DNA from: an uncultured archaeon
GTDB lineage: Archaea > Iainarchaeota > Iainarchaeia > Iainarchaeales > CSSED10-239
NCBI GenBank assembly: GCA_964586355.1
Contig: CAZPGO010000049.1
Coordinates: 1 to 10,260 of the forward strand
Reading direction: 5' to 3'
Length of the DNA: 10,260 nt
Positions within the stretch are counted from its first letter, which is position 1, and every line of letters starts with the position of its first letter. The position numbers and the translations under genes were made by a program. Below, in pieces: positions 1,248 to 10,259 of the stretch. Below the pieces are notes generated by a model, which worked only from the letters and a program-made list of their open reading frames with translations, did no database searches and was not told the DNA's origin.

Positions 1248-1445
1248 TTATTTTTTCTTAGAATTAGAAAGAAGCCTTTCTTTTTCTTCTTTAAGTTTTA
1301 CTCTTTCAAAATAATCTGCACTTTTGTAGATCTCATTAAACTTGTCTAGCTTTTTAAACCTTTTTTCAATCTCTTCATGACATTGTTTACAATAGATCTC
1401 AAAGTTACCTATCATTCTTCCGCATCTTATACATTTTTGTACCAT
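1248..1445 (-). CDS. small zinc-ribbon protein (two CxxC knuckles) with a Lys/Glu-rich helical tail
   Basis: The 65-aa ORF reads MVQKCIRCGRMIGNFEIYCKQCHEE.... It has CxxC at residues 5-8 and 19-22, the classic zinc-ribbon spacing. An AAGGTG Shine-Dalgarno-like motif ends about 10 nt upstream of the ATG (minus-strand read: aagaaggtgtaaaataatATG). It has its own upstream AT-rich promoter region, separated from the giant gene by terminator signals. Confidence 0.62.
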   Translation of the reverse strand: MVQKCIRCGRMIGNFEIYCKQCHEEIEKRFKKLDKFNEIYKSADYFERVKLKEEKERLLSNSKKK

Positions 1446-1642: not shown

Positions 1643-4600
1643 TTAAAGATCCTTTTTGTTAGATCTTAAATAAACAAACAAAAATCCAAATAAAATAATT
1701 GATATATAAAAGCAAAACAAAACAAAGTTTTTAGGAGCTAAAGGAATATTAAATCCACCAGAACCTCCACTTGTTCCACCACTACCAATATTAAAAATGT
1801 TTCCTGACCCTGTGCTACTTACTTCACCGGTATTAGGATCCTTAGCAAAATACATACCATCCTTAAAAGTATCATTTAAAGGAATCATATGACCATTTTC
1901 TGTATACCAATTACCAGTCTGTGGATCATACCAAAAAGATCCATTCTTTCCTTGAGCAGAGGTTAAGGTCTCAGTATCTCCATTATAGGTTAATCTTGGA
2001 ACACCATTATCAGCAGAAAACTCTAACTTGTGTTCTTGACCATCATCAGTTTTAACAATTATTCCTTCAGGAGTCTGAGTAATATCAGTAATCTTTTGAT
2101 CATATATCTCTCCAGTTTTTTTATCAATAACCTTCATTCTTTGCTCACATTCTGGAGGATCACCAACATAAAAAATAAAAGTTTTTGTTGGGGTATCAAA
2201 CATTTGGAAAGGACCAACATTCTCTAATGCTTTATTCAAATTATCAACATTATCTTTTGCTCTGTCATTATCAGCATCAGGCTGAGCTTTAAAATCTATT
2301 GCAATTTCAGTTTCATCACAACCATTTTGTGCTTTGTTTTCTGTGTTTAATGTAGCTCTTAAACCAGAAATGTCTTTTTCATTTGTAATAGAAGTATACT
2401 CAACCCACATAACATAACTTTTATTTTCAGAATTGTAAATTAATTGGCCTCTTTCAAACTGAACAGCAACATTATAACCAACAAAATCTATATTATCAGA
2501 AACTACAAGTTTTGTAGATCTGTTTCCATTAAAAACAATAGCCTTAGCACCAGAACCTTCAGCGACCTTTCTTGGAGTGCCTTCTGCAACTAATTTTCCA
2601 TTATTTGGAACAATATCATAAGCTGTTGATGGATGAGCATTATTTACCATCTTTACAGGGCCTAAATAATCTATTAGGTTTGTAACACTACCAGGTATCT
2701 CTATGCCTGTTTGATTAAAATACCCGTTTTTTAAACAATTTAAAAAAGAACTATCCTTAACTATAAAATTACCATAACCATCAATCTCAAAAAGATCAGA
2801 ATTACTATCACTTACCGGAATATAACTTAATCTGTGTGGAATAATTTTTGCAGGAATGGATAAATTATCAGCAATAAGACGAACAAAGTCTTTGTTTTTT
2901 GAATCAATTATTGTTTCTTCTACTCCCGTTTCATCAGTAACTTTAAGAGTACCATCTTCTTTATTAATTTCTAAATTAATATTATTTGTTTCATCTTTTA
3001 GTACCTCAACACCCTTATCAGAATAATTACTAGCTCTACACTTTGTGCCAGCACCAAGCTCAACAAAAAACAGGTCACCATTTACTGTGGAATAGGTATT
3101 ACCACCCGTAACTATTTGTGCTTGAGCTATTGGGTACTCAACAAGCTTTTGATCAGCAAAATTTTTAATCTCTTGAGCACCAGCAGAAACTGTTTGTTCT
3201 AGTTCTGTGCCTGCTGTTAGATTTACTAACCCTTCTTCTAATTTATCAGTGCTTTCTGCAATACTTTCAGCGATCTTATTTTTAGAATCAGATTTTACTC
3301 TATCATCTGCTGCTTTTGATACAAATATGTGTGTATAATAACCCTCTTTATCATCAACACATTGATTAATCTCAGGCATAATAAACAAAGCTTGAGGAAT
3401 ATTACTTAATAAAGCAGGAGCTAACCACGTACTTGTATAAGAAGAGACAGCTAAATATGCTATGTGCTCAGCAAGAACCAAAGCACCAGCTGACCTATAA
3501 TCATCAGGCATTACTAAACCTATTGGCATACCCAAAAGTTCCAAAGAATTTAGTTTATCTGCACAAGTTTCTTCATTCTTTTTAGCCATCTCTAAATTAA
3601 TAGAATTCTCTGTTTGTGTATTTGCTAAAACACCATCATAATCTGTGTGATGTGAAAAACTTATTAGGGTTTGACCTTTTTTGTCTAAATTATCTTTTAA
3701 TGTGTTTTCTATAATATAGTTTTGAGTTTTTATGTTTTGAGGAGTTGCATAAGTTATTCTTATACCCTCCAACATACCACTAAATGAAGAACTATCACCA
3801 GTAAATAAATCCACAGAATTTGCATTAGTTTTTGGAGCGCTATTTTCAAGATCTGTAGTTGTGGAAGAATCTGTTGTTTCTTGCGATTCTAAAGACTCTT
3901 GAGAATTTAAAAGATCAGGATCTTCATTTTCTACTGAAAAATTAATTTCTTTTTTTATCTCATCTGTTAGTAAATCATTATCCCCAAACTTATAAGTACA
4001 ACCAGTTCCACAACCAGTACTCATATTATCTGTTATTATTACTATATTATCTACTTCAGATCTTCTAATTTTACCTTCAGTAAGATTAGTTATAAACTTA
4101 TTCATAGATTGACCAATCTGATTATCCATACTACCTGTTAACTCCTTAGTTGCATAAGAAGACCAAAACAAAGCAGAATTAAGATACTTCATAAACAAAT
4201 CCCCTTGATCAGAACCCTCATTTGCAAAAAAATCAACATATGAATCAGAATAAAGAGGGGTAGTTTGATGCTTTATTTGTAAAGAAGTATAAGTTTCTGG
4301 TAACTGTAAAATACTATATTTAGTTAAACCAAGCCTATCTCCAAAAAAAGTATTAAAACCAGACTTTAATTCCCAATAACCAAGATTCCATGCAAAAACT
4401 AAATGATTTCGTGTAAAAAATCTTTGATATGCTGCTCCACTAAACTCCTTCATTTTTTTATTTATTCCACTAATACCTTTACCAGTAACCCACTCCTTAT
4501 TTGAAAGAGTTTTTACCATTTCTTCAGAATTAAAAGAAGCATCCTTAAACTTTTTAGTTAAAAAACCATCATTTATAGAATATGCTGTCTCTATTGGATC

Positions 4601-6736
4601 TAGACCATAAATATCACTGTCTAAATTAGATTTTATAGAATCAAAGACTTCAAATCTACTAATACCCAAAGCCTCTACTTTAGTTTTATTAAACAAATGT
4701 GCAGAGACCTCCACAACCTCATTAGTAGATGGATCAATATACCTTATAAAACCATCAGGTGTTGAATTAGCAAAGGCTTCAACAGCAGTTGTGCCTTTTA
4801 AAACTTGTCTAGTACTATCATTTGGAATAACATTTTGCACTTTTATTTTTTCAACAATAGCAGTAGACCCATCACTAAAAGTAACCTCTACTGGGTCTAC
4901 AAAAGAGGACTTTCCTGCAGCTGATTCATATATAATTTTACCAGTTTTATCATCTACTTTAATGTTTATTTCAAAAGGATCTCCTGCCTTTCTTAAAGCT
5001 TTATCCCCAATACTTGTAGCATCTCCAGAGTTTTTGGAAATAATTTTATTTAAGTTTACTATTTTTTCTGTGTTTGGATCAATCATCTCTCTATTATTAA
5101 CTAAAGCCACAGAATCTAAGCCCTCATCCCAAGAAAAACCCTGAAAAGTATTATTCTTAAATCCTTTCCCTAATTTAACAGCATCAGATGCTGTTGAGAC
5201 AACTGCATCGTATTCAGCAAAGGTTAATCCTTTTTCACCTGTTGTCCAAAGACCAGGAGGTTTGCCTTCAAGTTTAAAATTTTGAATTTTTTTCATTGCA
5301 CTTTTATAAACATCATCATTAACTCTTGCCTCTAATATAGAATTAGCAATTTTAAACTCTTCAAAATATTCTGTTGCAACATCAGTAAATGCATATTTTT
5401 GTGCTTTATTAAAACTATCATTATTTACAATAGCATTATGTAAAAATTCAGAAGTTTTTTTCTTATCAGCAATACCTCCTAAAAACTCCTTCATCTCTCC
5501 ATCAATTTTATACTGTTGAAGATCTCTAAGTCTTATTTCTGGGGTGTTGCGACCAATAACTCCAGAGTTAATATTATTTAAAAAAGCTTCAACATTATGT
5601 CTATATCTTTGAGAAGACAAAGCAATTTTTGTTTGTTGAACTGGGTGTCTTATTAAGTTTGCTGGATCATTTAAAAGATCATGAATAAAACCATTTTTTT
5701 TAATAACACCTGCATTCTCTAATTTTTTTGGAATATAATTAAAAACATTCAATGCCGTTTTATTTTTAAAAATTCTTGCAGCAGTATTTAATATTAATGG
5801 ACTTGCAGAACTAAAGACCATATCAACAGTAAAATACTGATTAAACATTTTATCAAATAAAGAATAGGTGTTAATATAACAATCCTCGCCCCTACATGTT
5901 GTCTGCATCTGAGCTGCAAAAGAATCTGTAAGGGTGTTGTTTTTTATAGCTTTATCTGTGTGCGTATTTAATTTTTCAATATTTAGTCCATTTAGATCAT
6001 TTTCAGGATTGTTTGCAATCTTATTATAATAATTTATTTCCTCCAAAGACATATCACTAAAAACACCAAGATCAATATCAGTAGAATAATCCTTATCTAA
6101 AATTGCTTCTCCTGTTTCTTCTCTTAATTTATTTAGTCCAATAAACTCTAATGCATCTTTTTTTACTATACTTGTTTGTCTCCAAAAACCACTTGCACTA
6201 TTGTTTCTATATAAACCTAAATCTGTTAAATAACAAGCAGCATTTTGAGAAGTATCACATCTTCCAACTCTATATGTACTATCAAGATTAACACCATAAT
6301 AATGGGGACCAATACACACTTTACCCAAAATAGTTGGAATCTCACTAGGATCTATTATTTGGGACGGAATCTCTTTTTTTATTGCAAGATCTCCTGCCTT
6401 AGCATCAGGCTCGGTAAGCAACACTTCATTTCTTTCTAAAACAGACTCTGATTTTACTGGTGTTTGATTAGAAGTAACAACTTCAGCAGAAAAGCCCTTT
6501 AATAGAATAGATCTCCAAAGCTTTTCTACAGACTCTTCAGGAAGCTCAACAGTCATACAACCAGTTCCAGAATCAGCAACAACTTTTTTCTCAGTTACCT
6601 TTGTTTGAGCATCAGCAAAAAAGATGGGCTCTGAATTATTTACTGGCAGATTAAATATCTGAGCATAAATACTGTTAGTAAATAGTATTAAAAAAAATAA
6701 TGTAATTATTTTTTCAGCAGTTTTATTTAGGCACAT
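1643..6736 (-). CDS. giant (1697 aa) secreted, C-terminally membrane-anchored surface protein, no recognisable domain; S-layer, adhesin or host-interaction candidate
   Basis: The ORF is an uninterrupted 5.1 kb. The N-terminus MCLNKTAEKIITLFFLILFTNSIYA|QIF looks like a Sec signal peptide. The C-terminus is a Gly/Ser linker, then hydrophobic FVLFCFYISIILFGFLFVYL, then basic RSNKKDL. By my count the ectodomain has 14 Cys, mostly in close pairs (RC-x8-C, C-x4-C, CGTGC), and about 20 N-x-S/T sequons. An AAGGA motif lies about 14 nt upstream of the ATG, and the gene starts 21 nt after the preceding gene's stop. Confidence 0.93.
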   Translation of the reverse strand: MCLNKTAEKIITLFFLILFTNSIYAQIFNLPVNNSEPIFFADAQTKVTEKKVVADSGTGCMTVELPEESVEKLWRSILLKGFSAEVVTSNQTPVKSESVLERNEVLLTEPDAKAGDLAIKKEIPSQIIDPSEIPTILGKVCIGPHYYGVNLDSTYRVGRCDTSQNAACYLTDLGLYRNNSASGFWRQTSIVKKDALEFIGLNKLREETGEAILDKDYSTDIDLGVFSDMSLEEINYYNKIANNPENDLNGLNIEKLNTHTDKAIKNNTLTDSFAAQMQTTCRGEDCYINTYSLFDKMFNQYFTVDMVFSSASPLILNTAARIFKNKTALNVFNYIPKKLENAGVIKKNGFIHDLLNDPANLIRHPVQQTKIALSSQRYRHNVEAFLNNINSGVIGRNTPEIRLRDLQQYKIDGEMKEFLGGIADKKKTSEFLHNAIVNNDSFNKAQKYAFTDVATEYFEEFKIANSILEARVNDDVYKSAMKKIQNFKLEGKPPGLWTTGEKGLTFAEYDAVVSTASDAVKLGKGFKNNTFQGFSWDEGLDSVALVNNREMIDPNTEKIVNLNKIISKNSGDATSIGDKALRKAGDPFEINIKVDDKTGKIIYESAAGKSSFVDPVEVTFSDGSTAIVEKIKVQNVIPNDSTRQVLKGTTAVEAFANSTPDGFIRYIDPSTNEVVEVSAHLFNKTKVEALGISRFEVFDSIKSNLDSDIYGLDPIETAYSINDGFLTKKFKDASFNSEEMVKTLSNKEWVTGKGISGINKKMKEFSGAAYQRFFTRNHLVFAWNLGYWELKSGFNTFFGDRLGLTKYSILQLPETYTSLQIKHQTTPLYSDSYVDFFANEGSDQGDLFMKYLNSALFWSSYATKELTGSMDNQIGQSMNKFITNLTEGKIRRSEVDNIVIITDNMSTGCGTGCTYKFGDNDLLTDEIKKEINFSVENEDPDLLNSQESLESQETTDSSTTTDLENSAPKTNANSVDLFTGDSSSFSGMLEGIRITYATPQNIKTQNYIIENTLKDNLDKKGQTLISFSHHTDYDGVLANTQTENSINLEMAKKNEETCADKLNSLELLGMPIGLVMPDDYRSAGALVLAEHIAYLAVSSYTSTWLAPALLSNIPQALFIMPEINQCVDDKEGYYTHIFVSKAADDRVKSDSKNKIAESIAESTDKLEEGLVNLTAGTELEQTVSAGAQEIKNFADQKLVEYPIAQAQIVTGGNTYSTVNGDLFFVELGAGTKCRASNYSDKGVEVLKDETNNINLEINKEDGTLKVTDETGVEETIIDSKNKDFVRLIADNLSIPAKIIPHRLSYIPVSDSNSDLFEIDGYGNFIVKDSSFLNCLKNGYFNQTGIEIPGSVTNLIDYLGPVKMVNNAHPSTAYDIVPNNGKLVAEGTPRKVAEGSGAKAIVFNGNRSTKLVVSDNIDFVGYNVAVQFERGQLIYNSENKSYVMWVEYTSITNEKDISGLRATLNTENKAQNGCDETEIAIDFKAQPDADNDRAKDNVDNLNKALENVGPFQMFDTPTKTFIFYVGDPPECEQRMKVIDKKTGEIYDQKITDITQTPEGIIVKTDDGQEHKLEFSADNGVPRLTYNGDTETLTSAQGKNGSFWYDPQTGNWYTENGHMIPLNDTFKDGMYFAKDPNTGEVSSTGSGNIFNIGSGGTSGGSGGFNIPLAPKNFVLFCFYISIILFGFLFVYLRSNKKDL
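1646..1810 (-). other. C-terminal tripartite anchor or sorting-signal-like tail (Gly/Ser linker, NIPLAP motif, TM helix, basic tail)
   Basis: The tail reads GSGNIFNIGSGGTSGGSGGFNIPLAPKN-FVLFCFYISIILFGFLFVYL-RSNKKDL*. Confidence 0.6.
6662..6736 (-). other. predicted Sec signal peptide of the giant protein (residues 1-25, cleavage IYA|Q)
   Basis: The segment has a basic n-region (K5, K9), a hydrophobic core IITLFFLILF, and small residues at -3 and -1 (S-I-Y-A). This is a manual prediction; no predictor was run. Confidence 0.6.
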
Positions 6737-6757
6737 AATTTCTCATAGATTCCTTTT

Positions 6758-7309
6758 TTAGATCAATATTAAATATAATAACAAAGCTAAAATTTTTGGA
6801 AAAATTAAATAAACAAAAAACACACAAATAAAAGTAATTGTTAAACTTAACCATAAATCCAAATAATTTAAACTCTTTTTAGAAGATTTTTTTTTATCTT
6901 TTTGTTTATGTTTAAAATTTATTTTTTCATAAGCAAAAGTGGTTATCATTGCAAAAATTACAACAATTGCTGAAAGTAATAAATTTACAAATAATAATTT
7001 TAAGAGGTTGTATATAAAAAAAATAATTAAATAAAAACCAGAGACCGGAATACTGGTAATAAACAATAATACTATAAAATAGATCAATAACAATATAGCC
7101 AAAACAATATATGTTAAAAAAAACAAAGAAACAATAAAGCTCTTTTTATCTCTAAACTTTAAAAAAGGTTTTTTTAACCAATCAACAATAAACACAAAAG
7201 GTATTGCAAAGATTGCACAAAAAAATATTAACTTTATAAAAAACCATAAATAGTTTAATATTTTTGTGAAAATACTTGACACATTTATTTTAAGAATTGT
7301 AGCATACAT
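6758..7309 (-). CDS. polytopic integral membrane protein (about 5-6 TM segments), unknown function, co-operonic with the giant surface protein
   Basis: The 183-aa product is extremely rich in Phe, Ile and Leu. Hydrophobic stretches include YLWFFIKLIFFCAIFAIPFVFIV, SFIVSLFFLTYIVLAILLLIYFIVLLFITSI, GFYLIIFFIYNLLKLLFVNLLLSAIVVIFAMITTFAY and LWLSLTITFICVFFVYLIFPKILALLLYLILI. A Lys-rich loop (KHKQKDKKKSSKKS) separates them. The stop is 21 nt before the giant gene ATG, and an AT-rich TATA-like element lies about 30 nt upstream of its own ATG. Confidence 0.72.
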   Translation of the reverse strand: MYATILKINVSSIFTKILNYLWFFIKLIFFCAIFAIPFVFIVDWLKKPFLKFRDKKSFIVSLFFLTYIVLAILLLIYFIVLLFITSIPVSGFYLIIFFIYNLLKLLFVNLLLSAIVVIFAMITTFAYEKINFKHKQKDKKKSSKKSLNYLDLWLSLTITFICVFFVYLIFPKILALLLYLILI

Positions 7310-7444
7310 AAAAAAACCTTTTCATAGACATATTATATATTTAAACAAAAGCTTTATATATATTATATTTATTATATATAATTATAGAATTAATATTTTA
7401 TATACCTTTTGCTTAACCTAAAAACAATTAAAAAAAGAAAAAAT
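7310..7444. promoter_or_regulatory. divergent AT-rich promoter region between the membrane/giant-protein operon (-) and the Lys/Glu-rich gene (+)
   Basis: This is a 135-nt spacer that is almost pure A/T. For the + gene, TTTTATATA at about 7396..7404 lies about 41 nt upstream of the ATG at 7445. For the - gene, TTTAAATATATA (minus read of about 7334..7345) lies about 30 nt upstream of the ATG at 7309. The word TATTATAT occurs three times (about 7331, 7361, 7370). These may be low-complexity chance matches. Confidence 0.4.
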
Positions 7445-8086
7445 ATGAACTTAAAAGATATTAAAAGAAGAGAAAGAAGATTTTATAGGAAAATAGAAAA
7501 TGACCAGATAAAATATGATGTTAAAACAGATACAAAAACACCAGAAGTAATACCAAAAGAAAACGCAGACCTGTTATTTTCTGAAGAAAACAGAGGTGCA
7601 GAAAAAAAAGAGATCATAGAAAACATCTTAAAAGAAATAAAAAATAATATTAATCCAGATATTGATGAGATAACAGACATCATATTTGCACAGCTAAATA
7701 ACAGCCATGTAGAAATAGATCAAAAAACTGTCAAAGAAGCTGTATGTAGACATCAAAGAAGAGAAAAAGATCAAACAGAAGAAAAGACCACTAATTTTAC
7801 AGAAAGAAAAAGATTAGAAACAGTAATAGATGATATATTAGATCAACTTTCAAAATCAGACAGTCTAGAAAAAAAACACTTTGAAGAAAAAAATAAAAAA
7901 GAAAAAGATCTATCAGAAGATAAAAGAAACAGAAGATCTAAAAAAGAAGAACCAGAAAAAAAAAAAGATCTATCAAAAGAAGAAAATAAAAAAACCAAAA
8001 AAGAAACACCTATAAAAGAAGATCTAGACACAGAAGATATAGAATCAGATGATCTTGATGAAGATGATCTTGGTTTAAAATTTTAA
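7445..8086 (+). CDS. highly charged Lys/Glu-rich, probably disordered cytoplasmic protein with an acidic C-terminal tail
   Basis: I prefer the ATG at 7445 (MNLKDIKRRERRFYRK...) to the TTG at 7409 used by the ORF track. There is no hydrophobic segment. The C-terminal third is KEKDLSEDKRNRRSKKEEPEKKKDLSKEENKKTKKETPIKEDLDTEDIESDDLDEDDLGLKF. The lysine-rich frame is consistent with AAA/GAA-rich purine-strand coding. Low complexity makes the coding call less secure than for the other genes. Confidence 0.68.
   Translation: MNLKDIKRRERRFYRKIENDQIKYDVKTDTKTPEVIPKENADLLFSEENRGAEKKEIIENILKEIKNNINPDIDEITDIIFAQLNNSHVEIDQKTVKEAVCRHQRREKDQTEEKTTNFTERKRLETVIDDILDQLSKSDSLEKKHFEEKNKKEKDLSEDKRNRRSKKEEPEKKKDLSKEENKKTKKETPIKEDLDTEDIESDDLDEDDLGLKF
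7900..8040 (+). repeat. imperfect 60-nt (20-aa) tandem periodicity inside the Lys/Glu-rich gene
   Basis: AAAGATCTATCA(G/A)AAGA occurs at about 7906 and about 7966, exactly 60 nt apart. A related GAAGATCTAGACA occurs at about 8019. This gives K-D-L-S-x-E / K-D-L-S-K-E / E-D-L-D-T-E at 20-aa spacing. An A11 homopolymer lies at 7956..7966. Confidence 0.45.
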
Positions 8087-8091
8087 TCTAT

Positions 8092-8898
8092 TTAAGGATC
8101 TGAGATTAGCACACAATTTAGCTTTTGTATATCAGATAAAGAATCATCGGATCCAGTTTGTGAAATATCTACAGTAGCAGGCCAGATTGCAAAAGTACTA
8201 TTTACTTGTATATTTGTTTGTGATTCATCAGAAGTATAATGTTGAAAATACATAGGAATTGATGAAGAATAGATCTTATTAGCCTTAGAGATTGTAGATC
8301 TTACATAATCATAACTTATAGGATCGCATAAATAATAATTGTAGGGAGTTTCATTATCAATAGAATAGATCTTTCTATATCTTGGCAATCCGCTTAAATT
8401 TGTTTCCTCCTCAAAATTAGTTAACTTAAGCACAAAGAAAATAAAGTCCTCAGAATAATCATACATATAAAAAACATAATCATAATTGTTTAAGGGTTGC
8501 ATTATAGATTTGATCATATGATATAAATTAAACTTAACTATGTCCCCATAATCTAAATTACCAGCACCATCTACAAGATTAAGAGAATTAATATCAGAAT
8601 CTTCTGCACCAATTACTTGATCAGAATAATAATCATGCTTAATTGCTGTCATTAAATAATCAGTTTCTTGCCCCTGTTGGTAATTAAGATCATAATTAAG
8701 AGGAATAGATGTGTAAAAAATAGTTCTCATGGCAGAATTTGCATACTCCTTAAAATAAAGATCAGAAATGCTTTGATCAACTCTTTCTCCATAAGAAGAA
8801 GAATATCTAAACATTAATACAGCCAAAGTAACAATAATCATTAAAAAAAACAAAGCATCTGTAACTGCTGCTTGACCTTTTCTTTTTTTAAAAAACAT
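8092..8898 (-). CDS. archaeal type IV pilin-like protein with a class III (prepilin peptidase-type) signal peptide and a large divergent globular domain
   Basis: The N-terminus is MFFKKRKG|QAAVTDALFFLMIIVTLAVLMF: a short basic leader, Gly at -1, Gln at +1, then a 22-residue hydrophobic helix. This fits the archaeal class III signal pattern (KGQ-x-x-x-[E/D]-x-x-x-L type). The remaining about 235 aa are rich in Tyr, Asp and Asn and have 2 Cys. It is the last gene of a tight minus-strand operon, 18 nt after the previous stop. Confidence 0.8.
   Translation of the reverse strand: MFFKKRKGQAAVTDALFFLMIIVTLAVLMFRYSSSYGERVDQSISDLYFKEYANSAMRTIFYTSIPLNYDLNYQQGQETDYLMTAIKHDYYSDQVIGAEDSDINSLNLVDGAGNLDYGDIVKFNLYHMIKSIMQPLNNYDYVFYMYDYSEDFIFFVLKLTNFEEETNLSGLPRYRKIYSIDNETPYNYYLCDPISYDYVRSTISKANKIYSSSIPMYFQHYTSDESQTNIQVNSTFAIWPATVDISQTGSDDSLSDIQKLNCVLISDP
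8809..8898 (-). other. class III signal peptide (leader MFFKKRKG) plus the pilin-type N-terminal hydrophobic helix
   Basis: The leader occupies 8875..8898, and the hydrophobic segment QAAVTDALFFLMIIVTLAVLMF occupies 8809..8874. The cleavage position is inferred from the known PibD/FlaK-type substrate pattern. Confidence 0.6.
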
Positions 8899-8916
8899 AT
8901 TTTCTCTTTTTTTAAA

Positions 8917-9414
8917 TTATCTCCAAACAACAACATATAATCTTGCTGGTTTTATATATAGATCTTTTTGAGTAGTTGTGGGATATTGATAAATAATTAC
9001 CTCACTAGAAGTATTTGAAAGAAAAGAAGTAACATCAGAAGAATCACAAACATAAAGTTGCTCATCTTCCCCCTCTCCTTCCTTTAAAATATTTCCTTCT
9101 AGATTTTCTTTAGTTAATGAAACATAATTATCAGAATTTAAATCAAAATCAACCAAAAAAGCATTCCATTTAAACTTAGTATTAACCTTTGAACAAGTTT
9201 TTTTAAAAGTATCAAGATTAAGAATAACAGGTTCCTCTTTCATAATAGCAGAAACCGAAATAGCTTCTGACTTTAAAGAATAAAGATCTGTATTATCTTT
9301 ATAGACATTATAAGTATTTAAAAAAACACTAAAAAATATCATTAAACCTAAGAAAATAGGGATAAGACTTGGAAGATCATCTCCAATTGCACCAATAAAA
9401 CCTTTCTTAATCAT
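8917..9414 (-). CDS. N-terminally anchored pilin-like or pilus-associated protein (165 aa)
   Basis: I prefer the ATG at 9414 (MIKKGFIGAIGDDLPSLIPIFLGLMIFFSVFL...) to the ORF-track start at 9477. The longer form adds 21 non-hydrophobic residues and overlaps the upstream gene by 43 nt. The shorter form leaves a 20-nt spacer and places a basic KKG motif directly before the hydrophobic helix. The ectodomain has 2 Cys and ends in a beta-rich ...LYIKPARLYVVVWR. Confidence 0.7.
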   Translation of the reverse strand: MIKKGFIGAIGDDLPSLIPIFLGLMIFFSVFLNTYNVYKDNTDLYSLKSEAISVSAIMKEEPVILNLDTFKKTCSKVNTKFKWNAFLVDFDLNSDNYVSLTKENLEGNILKEGEGEDEQLYVCDSSDVTSFLSNTSSEVIIYQYPTTTQKDLYIKPARLYVVVWR

Positions 9415-9434
9415 AATTAATTCATATTTTCTGT

Positions 9435-10091
9435 TTAAGTAATATTTGTTATTAGATTTGTAACAGTATTTAGACAATCTAAATCTTCTTCATCATACAG
9501 CTCATCTCTTACCTGATCAAACTCATTACAGGTATAAACATTATTTCTATAAGCACAAGGAAAAAAATAAATGTTTGGTTGACCATTTTTAATCTTTTTA
9601 ACAAAGAAAAACATGGTGTCAATAGATCTAGATTTTAGAGGATCGTAATTTACAAAATTTTCAGAAGATTTGCAGATCTTTTCAGAATCCTCACAATCAG
9701 AACTATAAAGATATATAGGGCCATTAAAATCAATATCATAAGCTGCATATATTGTGTTATTATTTGTTCTTCTATCCATTATTGATAAAACCACTTTGTT
9801 TGTATCCTCATTAACCACATAATAAGAAATATCCAAAACATATTTAATGCTAAACATCTCAGAATGACCATTATTAGTATAAATTTTATCAGGCAGATCC
9901 AATTGTTTAACAGTACAATAACTATTACTCTCAACACCTGTTTTTATCTGCGAACCTAAACTATAAACAAGCTCATAACTCTGTCTTGTTTTCATATTAG
10001 AATTTACTGTAGCCATAAAAAAAATAACTATAGATGCTATTGCAGTAACAAAAATTAAAAGATTCATTTTGGATAAACTAAACTCAATCAT
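9435..10091 (-). CDS. N-terminally anchored, cysteine-containing extracellular protein (218 aa), pilin-like or pilus-associated
   Basis: The N-terminus MIEFSLSKMNLLIFVTAIASIVIFFMATV has a single N-terminal TM helix and no obvious G-1 cleavage site. An alternative start is M9 at 10067. There are 6 Cys after the helix (SYC, SDC-x6-C, FPC-x8-C, LDC). The ATG lies 3 nt after the upstream stop, with a GAGAAGGG motif about 10 nt upstream. Confidence 0.75.
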   Translation of the reverse strand: MIEFSLSKMNLLIFVTAIASIVIFFMATVNSNMKTRQSYELVYSLGSQIKTGVESNSYCTVKQLDLPDKIYTNNGHSEMFSIKYVLDISYYVVNEDTNKVVLSIMDRRTNNNTIYAAYDIDFNGPIYLYSSDCEDSEKICKSSENFVNYDPLKSRSIDTMFFFVKKIKNGQPNIYFFPCAYRNNVYTCNEFDQVRDELYDEEDLDCLNTVTNLITNIT

Positions 10092-10094
10092 AAA

Positions 10095-10259
10095 CTAAAC
10101 CCTTCTCTTTCTTAACAAACAAATTTTTTGAACACCGGTGTTTGATGTAGATCCTTGTTTAAATATTTTATATATACCTGGTCTTATTGATGTTCCAGAG
10201 GGATCTATTGCTTCCCAAAGATCTGTATCATCATCTAAAACTAAACACTCACTATCTGT
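10095..10259 (-). CDS. 3' end of a further upstream gene of the same operon (C-terminal 54 aa only; the start lies beyond the window)
   Basis: The minus frame is open from the window edge: TDSECLVLDDDTDLWEAIDPSGTSIRPGIYKIFKQGSTSNTGVQKICLLRKRRV, then TAG at 10095..10097. It is missing from the ORF track because no start codon falls inside the window. Function cannot be assigned from this fragment. Confidence 0.5.
   Translation of the reverse strand, partial: TDSECLVLDDDTDLWEAIDPSGTSIRPGIYKIFKQGSTSNTGVQKICLLRKRRV

Follow-up and report, generated by a model that had tools for sequence, protein, structure and literature searches.

A giant anchored ectoprotein paired with a small membrane protein closes a type IV filament gene cluster of Iainarchaeota

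PilY1/PilC (PF05567), a tip-associated protein of bacterial type IVa pili encoded in the minor-pilin operon fimU-pilVWXY1E, is a large non-pilin that serves as an adhesin or priming factor and carries a Sec signal, not a prepilin signal. For archaeal type IV pilus (T4P) loci, the 2016 survey of Makarova, Koonin and Albers describes large accessory proteins, including DUF2341 ‘PilY-like’ proteins in methanococcal Epd loci and a large ‘S-layer-like’ protein with a C-terminal transmembrane (TM) segment in the Pyrobaculum/Thermoproteus clade 4G loci; the survey also records conserved cysteines, and makes no mention of DPANN or Diapherotrites (PMC4858521). A 2019 review covers DPANN T4P ‘dark-matter’ islands in generic terms only (PMC6393860), and a 2026 preprint reclassifies archaeal type IV filament (TFF) systems and reports a remotely PilY-like adhesin in subsystem 4A/B (10.64898/2026.04.22.720090). 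Here we describe a gene pair in a 10,260-nucleotide stretch of DNA (the window; contig CAZPGO010000049.1 of assembly GCA_964586355.1; GC content ~30%) from an uncultured archaeon of the Iainarchaeota; in the JGI data the window is contig 3300001335 ML8_10003802. The pair encodes a 1697-residue exported protein, which we call the giant, and a 183-residue polytopic membrane protein, which we call the partner. Neither the literature we searched nor the part of the 2026 preprint that we consulted describes the giant family. The original prediction, made from the letters of the window without database searches, gave coordinates and lengths for the two open reading frames (ORFs) that agree with our ORF listing and translations (Table 1). 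It took the pair for an orphan two-gene unit; gene context instead points to the giant as a surface accessory of a type IV filament system.

Relatives of the giant are numerous. A word-indexed search returned 38 homologue clusters, all annotated as ‘hypothetical’, with the few named ones being Diapherotrites or ‘ainarchaeum’. An exhaustive HMMER search with a profile of giant residues 760-1697 recovered 218 representatives (clustered at 50% identity), and 119 of these reach E ≤1e-30; nearly all are 1200-1700 residues long, and their conserved part is C-terminal. In a scan that took a single genome for each GTDB species, a relative turned up in at least 110 of the genomes, including the complete genomes CP045477.1 (Forterrea) and CP010424.1 (AR10), as well as Ca. 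Iainarchaeum andersonii. Named loci carry the labels Ca. Iainarchaeum, Diapherotrites, Forterrea or GW2011_AR10, with a single exception labelled Micrarchaeota. The giant family is phylum-wide, unannotated and almost confined to Iainarchaeota/Diapherotrites (DPANN), with ~30% identity across the phylum. We kept 80 loci for comparison, and no assembly contributes two of them, which fits a dedicated single-copy machine part. With this distribution, and with the pair lying inside a conserved multigene cluster (see below), the term ‘orphan’ no longer applies.

The partner accompanies the giant through most of this range. A word-based search with the partner sequence found only two close relatives; its positional equivalents in other loci align with it end to end and share its topology, and a hidden Markov model (HMM) recovers 70 of them. 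The family HMMs were run on 68 loci in which the giant gene is complete and preceded by at least 700 nucleotides of upstream sequence. The partner gene lies directly upstream of the giant gene on the same strand in 60 of these loci (median gap 25 nucleotides), elsewhere in the locus in seven, and was not found in one, so that the two genes do co-occur in relatives and the pairing is conserved. Hydropathy gives the partner, which also has a K-rich loop, four to five hydrophobic segments, in line with the polytopic protein first proposed, with a lower count than the five to six segments then assigned. The arrangement is unchanged in two distant relatives (47-57% GC), where the partner is shortened to 82-84 residues and the giant tail has the form LPSWPE-TM-basic; that the linkage persists in such relatives counts in favor of a filament module.

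We found the same gene order in six contigs from different branches (L003, L004, L006, L007, L008 and L009 of our locus set): a gene for a 744-792-residue membrane protein, a series of small same-strand genes, an opposite-strand gene for ~225-268 residues, a membrane protein gene of 163-183 residues, and the giant gene. The small proteins form six families. In five of these, an initial [KR][GA]Q or KG[FY] leads into a hydrophobic helix, the pattern of a class III signal; these calls come from motif inspection across seven loci, with no FlaFind or curated HMM match. The sixth has an N-terminal hydrophobic anchor without the K-G-Q motif. One of the five class III families, 56-79 residues long and with a weak match to Flp, is from its sequence the probable major filament subunit, and no member of the pilin-like series has a match in a curated family. 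Using one HMM per small-protein family, we detected the pilin-like series ahead of the partner-giant pair in 47 of the 49 loci with at least 5.5 kb of upstream sequence. The pair is therefore not a two-gene unit on its own, as first thought, and stands at the end of a phylum-wide filament cluster; nor is it isolated in the window, where three pilin-like genes at 8092-10091 had been missed.

The cluster also includes candidates for the secretion machinery. A secretion ATPase of ~760 residues with PF00437 on record adjoins it in L006 and L007, outside the window. Its PDB matches are led by A. fulgidus GspE2 (2oap; E = 1.5e-30), followed by CpaF (1.8e-27) and FlaI (3e-22), and range to 2e-21; among the NCBIfam FlaI/TadA models it reaches E = 2.4e-42 with FlaI, below the equivalog cut-off. 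In L006, the 792-residue platform candidate matches PF00482 (T2SSF) with E = 3e-5 and 24.4 bits versus a cut-off of 25.2, and its 43%-identical orthologue in L003 has no PF00482 match. Among the Pfam annotations of the loci displayed we recognized no prepilin peptidase (PibD/FlaK/EppA); whole genomes were not searched for one. Overall, the cluster resembles the Epd pilus of Methanococcus and the bacterial Tad/Flp pilus in having an ATPase of archaeal secretion type close to CpaF, TadA and FlaI, a short pilin without a globular domain, and several larger pilin-like proteins. It differs from them in that the platform candidate is one ~750-790-residue protein in place of the product of two genes, possibly a fusion of two Epd/Tad-type platform genes, and in that the ATPase has a ~300-residue N-terminal extension before the region that matches FlaI, CpaF and GspE2. 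It differs further in that its pilin-like proteins belong to no curated family and that it closes with the partner-giant pair.

We next consider the giant itself. Its hydropathy scan shows two strongly hydrophobic segments only, at residues 10-28 and 1672-1690. The N-terminus has an n-h-c layout, and the family consensus ...NSxFA followed by Q or S resembles a signal peptidase I site and not a class III signal; the second segment is a TM helix, followed by RSNKKDL. Hydropathy and the family alignment together bear out the Sec signal, C-terminal TM anchor and basic tail of the original prediction. The giant contains 16 cysteines, two in the signal peptide or TM helix and 14 in the ectodomain, ten of which (C60, C160, C168, C909, C913, C1058, C1126, C1334, C1473 and C1530) are invariant in 22 diverse homologues. 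The earlier count of 14 was correct, while the claim that they sit mostly in short-range pairs was not: only three such pairs exist (160/168, 281/286 and 909/913), and the other spacings are 57-101 residues. These data support the description of the giant as an exported, C-terminally anchored, Cys-stabilized envelope protein of a DPANN archaeon without a known domain.

The 700 C-terminal, membrane-proximal residues are the best conserved part of the giant, and residues 350-750 the least. Near the N-terminus, residues ~51-300 contain the motif TTCxGENCYINTYSLFDKMFNQYF, in a part where AlphaFold confidence is low. The middle module (residues ~350-750), in which a helical bundle precedes an alpha/beta unit, has conservation of 0.27-0.37 per 50-residue bin, the lowest in the giant, and a predicted local distance difference test (pLDDT) score of 70-93. 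It is followed by a motif region (residues ~800-1140) that is as highly conserved as the all-beta module near the C-terminus, which lies within the conserved residues 1200-1650. The motif region contains DFFANxGSDQGDLF (residues 801-850), C909/C913, and FSHHTDYDG and CVDDEEGYYxHFF (residues 1001-1150), with a variable acidic/Ser-Thr linker at residues 935-985. D831, D835, D846, E1010, H1030, D1128 and H1136 are invariant in this region, a possible metal site judging by its sequence. A conserved, moderately hydrophobic stretch of the ectodomain (AGALVLAEHIAYLAVSSYTSTWLAPALLSNIPQALFIMPE; residues ~1085-1125, window ~3362-3484, minus strand) immediately precedes CVDDEEG. It stays below the TM threshold, and its model shows helices of low to moderate confidence; either a buried core or an element that interacts with the membrane would fit.

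We ran AlphaFold2 with a 39-sequence alignment on the giant as two halves, split at residue 975/985. The C-terminal half has a mean pLDDT of 75; the N-terminal half has a mean of 63, with residues 300-800 reasonably confident. Residues 800-1140 are poorly modeled, partly because the giant was cut inside this region. Foldseek comparison of the C-terminal half with the PDB returned beta-propellers only (Kelch, WD40, YWTD and DPP-IV; best E = 1.9e-4), and PilY1 is absent among the 50 matches listed; the viral library BFVD likewise gave only propeller-class matches, with poor superposition. Self-comparison with hhalign for blade repeats detected no internal repeats. Given the weak scores and poor superposition, we do not claim a propeller fold for this module and describe it as all-beta and locally propeller-like only. 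The N-terminal half has no Foldseek neighbor (best E = 0.12). In sequence searches, Pfam and NCBIfam scans of all window proteins gave no significant match for the giant or the partner, as did PDB-sequence searches; Pfam scans of 22 family members taken singly and of seven distant members, and PDB-sequence searches with the single giant and with its profile, were also without significant match. We did not use the RibLong/YPDG matches at residues 583-629, which occur in one of the 22 members and fall below the curated cut-offs. The earlier statement that the giant has no recognizable domain thus holds for curated families, PDB sequences and convincing fold neighbors alike, and the structure models yielded no confident match of the ectodomain to a known S-layer or adhesin family.

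How does the giant compare with known accessory proteins? Like PilY1/PilC, it is a large non-pilin with a Sec and not a prepilin signal, and its gene ends a run of about five minor-pilin-like genes. It also has a conserved C-terminal beta-rich module with a variable region N-terminal to it, and conserved acidic motifs that are candidate metal binders. Unlike PilY1/PilC, none of the 22 giant-family members matches PF05567 or DUF2341 at E up to 1, and fold similarity amounts to weak propeller-class matches. The giant further differs in its conserved C-terminal TM anchor with a sorting-signal-like motif, its small polytopic partner, its occurrence in archaeal monoderm cells, and its predicted transcription apart from the pilin genes. 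With the archaeal T4P accessory proteins (PMC4858521) it has in common that a big exported protein with conserved cysteines is encoded among fast-evolving pilins, and with the clade 4G protein the C-terminal TM anchor. It differs from these proteins in lacking DUF2341 or any other Pfam match and in coming from a different phylum. Two further differences are that its small membrane partner is obligatory and that its C-terminal motif is conserved.

We favor, with slightly less than even confidence, a model in which an Epd/Tad-like type IV filament system, conserved across Iainarchaeota, has the partner-giant pair as its terminal module, transcribed separately. By analogy, the giant is best read as a filament-associated anchored adhesin or anchor, PilY1-like in position and layout and not a homologue, and it is the best candidate for the filament’s surface-contact part. 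In this model, the giant would be exported via Sec and stabilized by its conserved disulfides, and the C-terminal helix would hold it at the membrane with the pre-TM motif N[IL]P[SL]xPE just outside. Residues ~800-1650, comprising the motif region and the all-beta module, would dock to the filament machinery, with the pilin-like complex, the platform or the partner as possible contacts. The variable middle module (~350-750) would face outward as the distal, ligand-facing part and contact a surface or host cell, and the small polytopic partner would act non-enzymatically to escort or position the giant’s anchor. The giant’s role would then approximate that of PilY1 beside the minor pilins. In this picture the topology, the conservation, the gene pairing and the link to the filament cluster are shown; docking, the outward-facing variable module, adhesion and the partner’s role are inferred. 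Of the ‘S-layer or host-contact machinery’ suggested originally, host or surface contact is the better half given the filament context, and the S-layer half has gained no specific support.

Several observations weigh against this model. We found neither sequence homology nor convincing structural homology to PilY1 or adhesins, and for the propeller matches the probability does not exceed 0.47 and TM-scores stay below 0.15. PilY1, a soluble protein, lacks a permanent C-terminal TM anchor, and such an anchor would be awkward for a location at the filament tip. The pair is split from the pilin genes by an opposite-strand gene and so would have a separate transcript, the ATPase is adjacent in some lineages only, and two of the 68 loci have the cluster in inverted orientation with respect to the giant.

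An alternative that we judge unlikely is that the giant is the main anchored surface-layer (S-layer) or envelope-scaffold protein, encoded near filament genes as the filament must cross or attach to the layer, in the manner of archaellum stator proteins and the S-layer. Archaeal S-layer glycoproteins likewise combine a signal peptide with C-terminal anchoring, and the giant adds to its Sec signal and TM anchor a large Cys-stabilized ectodomain and a Gly/Ser linker. The family’s presence throughout the phylum, and at a single locus in each assembly represented in the set of 80, would suit such a protein, and the large C-terminally anchored protein of Pyrobaculum/Thermoproteus T4P loci has been judged ‘probably S-layer-like’ (PMC4858521). 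However, neither the window protein nor any of the 22 members matches a Pfam or NCBIfam S-layer model (S_layer_N/C, DUF1608, halobacterial surface glycoprotein or PGF-CTERM). N-x-S/T sequons are not enriched: the giant has 22 versus 20.4 expected from its composition, and this agreement with chance leaves no evidence for the glycosylation that ~20 sequons had been taken to suggest. The invariant His/Asp/Cys/Gly motifs and the ~30% identity across the phylum are also unusually high conservation for S-layer proteins. The strict pairing with the partner, like the tight synteny with the pilin genes, indicates a component of a machine.

Less probable again is that a dedicated C-terminal sorting system acts on the giant, cleaving the tail of this substrate and moving the protein to lipid, wall or filament, with the partner forming part of the system. 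The pre-TM motif has the family consensus N[IL]P[SL]xPE, and the motif-TM-basic tail is present in almost all of the ~75 complete C-termini listed, including distant relatives with LPSWPE. From its sequence this tail looks like a sorting signal: as in PGF-CTERM/archaeosortase A and PEP-CTERM/exosortase systems, a low-complexity linker (here rich in Gly/Ser) leads to a short Pro motif, a TM helix and a basic cluster. The partner gene adjoins that of the giant, and dedicated sorting enzymes and their targets are reportedly often encoded side by side. Yet the motif itself is distinct from those of the known systems, four tails searched with the NCBIfam CTERM models gave no match even at an E-value limit of 10, and the tail has one carrier per locus, with no further ORF of the fetched loci bearing it. 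In the partner, moreover, no C, H, R, D or E exceeds a column frequency of 0.51 across the 70 sequences, and the protein shrinks to less than half its length in the distant lineages. The cognate Cys/Arg/His (or Ser/His) site is not in the adjacent partner; the rest of the genome was not searched for it. Without a conserved catalytic-type residue an enzymatic role of the partner is unlikely, and we rejected the idea that it is a sortase or protease dedicated to the giant. That it serves for structure or escort is more plausible. The S-layer and sorting alternatives are not mutually exclusive with the filament-module model and are compatible with it.

A more far-reaching proposal, which we regard as a long shot, is an Iainarchaeota-specific contact apparatus in which an Flp-like filament would deploy or operate a 1500-1700-residue protein of new fold, targeted by the partner and by its N[IL]P[SL]xPE-CTERM, a C-terminal signal not described before, for host attachment or exchange. 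If true, this would be a new class of filament-coupled surface machine and not a PilY1 analogue. Structural Ca2+ sites, of the kind that PilY1 reportedly has, bear on the least probable alternative we considered: an anchored ecto-enzyme or metal-dependent processing factor whose residues 800-1140 form a catalytic or regulatory metal site acting on the envelope, host surface or filament subunits would account for the invariant acidic and His residues in short motifs (D831, D835, D846; H1030; D1128, H1136) and for conservation equal to that of the beta module, but neither profile nor fold searches match a hydrolase or other enzyme family, the region is modeled at low confidence, in part from the 975/985 split, and the motifs can equally be read as such structural sites. 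We also consider an origin from a virus or mobile element unlikely, because the neighbors include the housekeeping genes for AspRS, thymidylate synthase and SHMT and the synteny is stable across the phylum.

These results turn a former ‘hypothetical protein’ into a defined target: its partner and its place at the end of a gene cluster are fixed, its anchor motif is conserved, and its conserved and variable parts are mapped. Iainarchaeota belong to the DPANN archaea and are uncultured, and the giant offers a target for labeling, pull-down and tomograms in enrichment cultures. For annotators, about eight unnamed genes now belong to HMM-ready families. A DPANN lineage also joins the catalogue of archaeal type IV filament systems with large accessory surface proteins.

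Table 1. Features of the window and of related loci (L numbers). Residue numbers refer to the giant.
Feature	Coordinates	Strand	Description
Giant gene	1643..6736	-	1697-residue protein, exported, C-terminally anchored
Sec-type signal peptide	6662..6736	-	Residues 1-25 (MCLNKTAEKIITLFFLILFTNSIYA, then Q); from hydropathy and alignment, putative cleavage site
Conserved Cys-rich N-terminal region	5837..6586	-	Residues ~51-300; C60, C160/C168, C281/C286
Variable middle module	4487..5689	-	Residues ~350-750; helical bundle, then alpha/beta unit
Conserved motif region	3317..4339	-	Residues ~800-1140
Conserved all-beta module	1817..3067	-	Residues ~1224-1640; pLDDT mostly >90
C-terminal tripartite tail	1646..1756	-	Gly/Ser linker, FNIPLAPK, TM helix 1672-1690, RSNKKDL
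Spacer between giant and partner	6737..6757	-	21 nucleotides, AGGA inside
Partner gene	6758..7309	-	183-residue polytopic membrane protein
Divergent intergenic region	7310..7408	.	AT-rich; next gene on other strand
Opposite-strand gene	7409..8086	+	225 residues, highly charged, conserved N-terminal RRxRRFYR
Pilin-like protein	8092..8898	-	268 residues, class III signal (KRKGQAAVTDALFFLMIIV); orthologues in all full loci
Pilin-like protein	8917..9414	-	165 residues from the JGI-call start (MIKKGFIGAIGDDLPSLIPIF...); mechanical ORF to 9477
Pilin-series protein	9435..10091	-	218 residues (MIEFSLSKMNLLIFV...), N-terminally anchored, without K-G-Q motif
Pilin-like C-terminal fragment	10095..10259	-	Cut by window edge; family starting KGQ/KAQ-ASAPFE
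Truncated GLUG protein	5-1240 (listed ORF 98-1240)	+	Three GLUG motifs, Pfam 1.3e-13
Zinc-ribbon protein	1248-1445	-	65 residues, CxxC...CxxC
Cluster ATPase gene	L006 1-1581; L007 1162-3438 (-)		~760 residues
Extra polytopic protein	L006 8437-9357 (-); L091 4651-6855 (-); L090 137-2186 (-)		

Turning to the remaining features of the window, it is reasonable to view partner and giant as a two-gene transcription unit. The 21-nucleotide spacer supports co-transcription only, and the translational coupling first proposed is not borne out by it. Downstream of the giant’s stop codon lie an oligo-T run and a hairpin with a T-tract. Because an opposite-strand gene intervenes between the pair and the pilin genes, gene order implies that the divergent intergenic region must hold the unit’s own promoter. 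A sigma-70 promoter scan of the window gave 40 sites versus 34.5 expected, a model that is uninformative for an archaeon, and the window contains no tRNA or Rfam features.

The charged protein of the opposite-strand gene is Lys/Glu-rich with an acidic C-terminus and no hydrophobic segment, and could be a cytoplasmic regulator; its gene occupies the same position in most close relatives and accounts for an AT-skew peak of 0.515 at 7501-8000. We assigned the pilin-like fragment at the window edge by eye from its similarity, the HMM giving no match on so short a piece. On the other side of the giant, the truncated GLUG protein shows weak similarity to the N-terminal region of ZmpA/IgA1 protease and may be a further protein of surface or adhesin type. 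Related loci contain no counterpart of it here, and in them the AspRS gene comes after the giant gene; the AspRS gene is absent from the window, which has therefore undergone a local rearrangement. The 65-residue zinc-ribbon protein is kept downstream of the cluster in L004, after the AspRS gene (59% identity), and a 78-residue gene takes its position in L008.

Many genomes contain a second filament-type locus a few kilobases downstream of the giant. In L006 (16081-19284) and L007 (17372-22987), it comprises a shorter T2SSE ATPase, one or more T2SSF-type platform genes and a PAC2-family gene; in many of L027-L085, we found a second ATPase match 3-6 kb downstream of the giant, in most cases with nothing else seen. 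The deeper lineages have an extra polytopic membrane protein, encoded on the opposite strand between the pilin series and the partner-giant pair. This protein does not occur in the window’s clade, Pfam scans assigned it to no significant family, and in L090 and L091 it has a zinc-ribbon or RING-like end according to weak matches. Finally, the 165-residue pilin-like family has an invariant-looking GDDLPSLIP between its KG motif and the hydrophobic helix, which resembles the giant’s pre-TM NLPSLPE; this may reflect chance or a shared membrane-interface recognition element.

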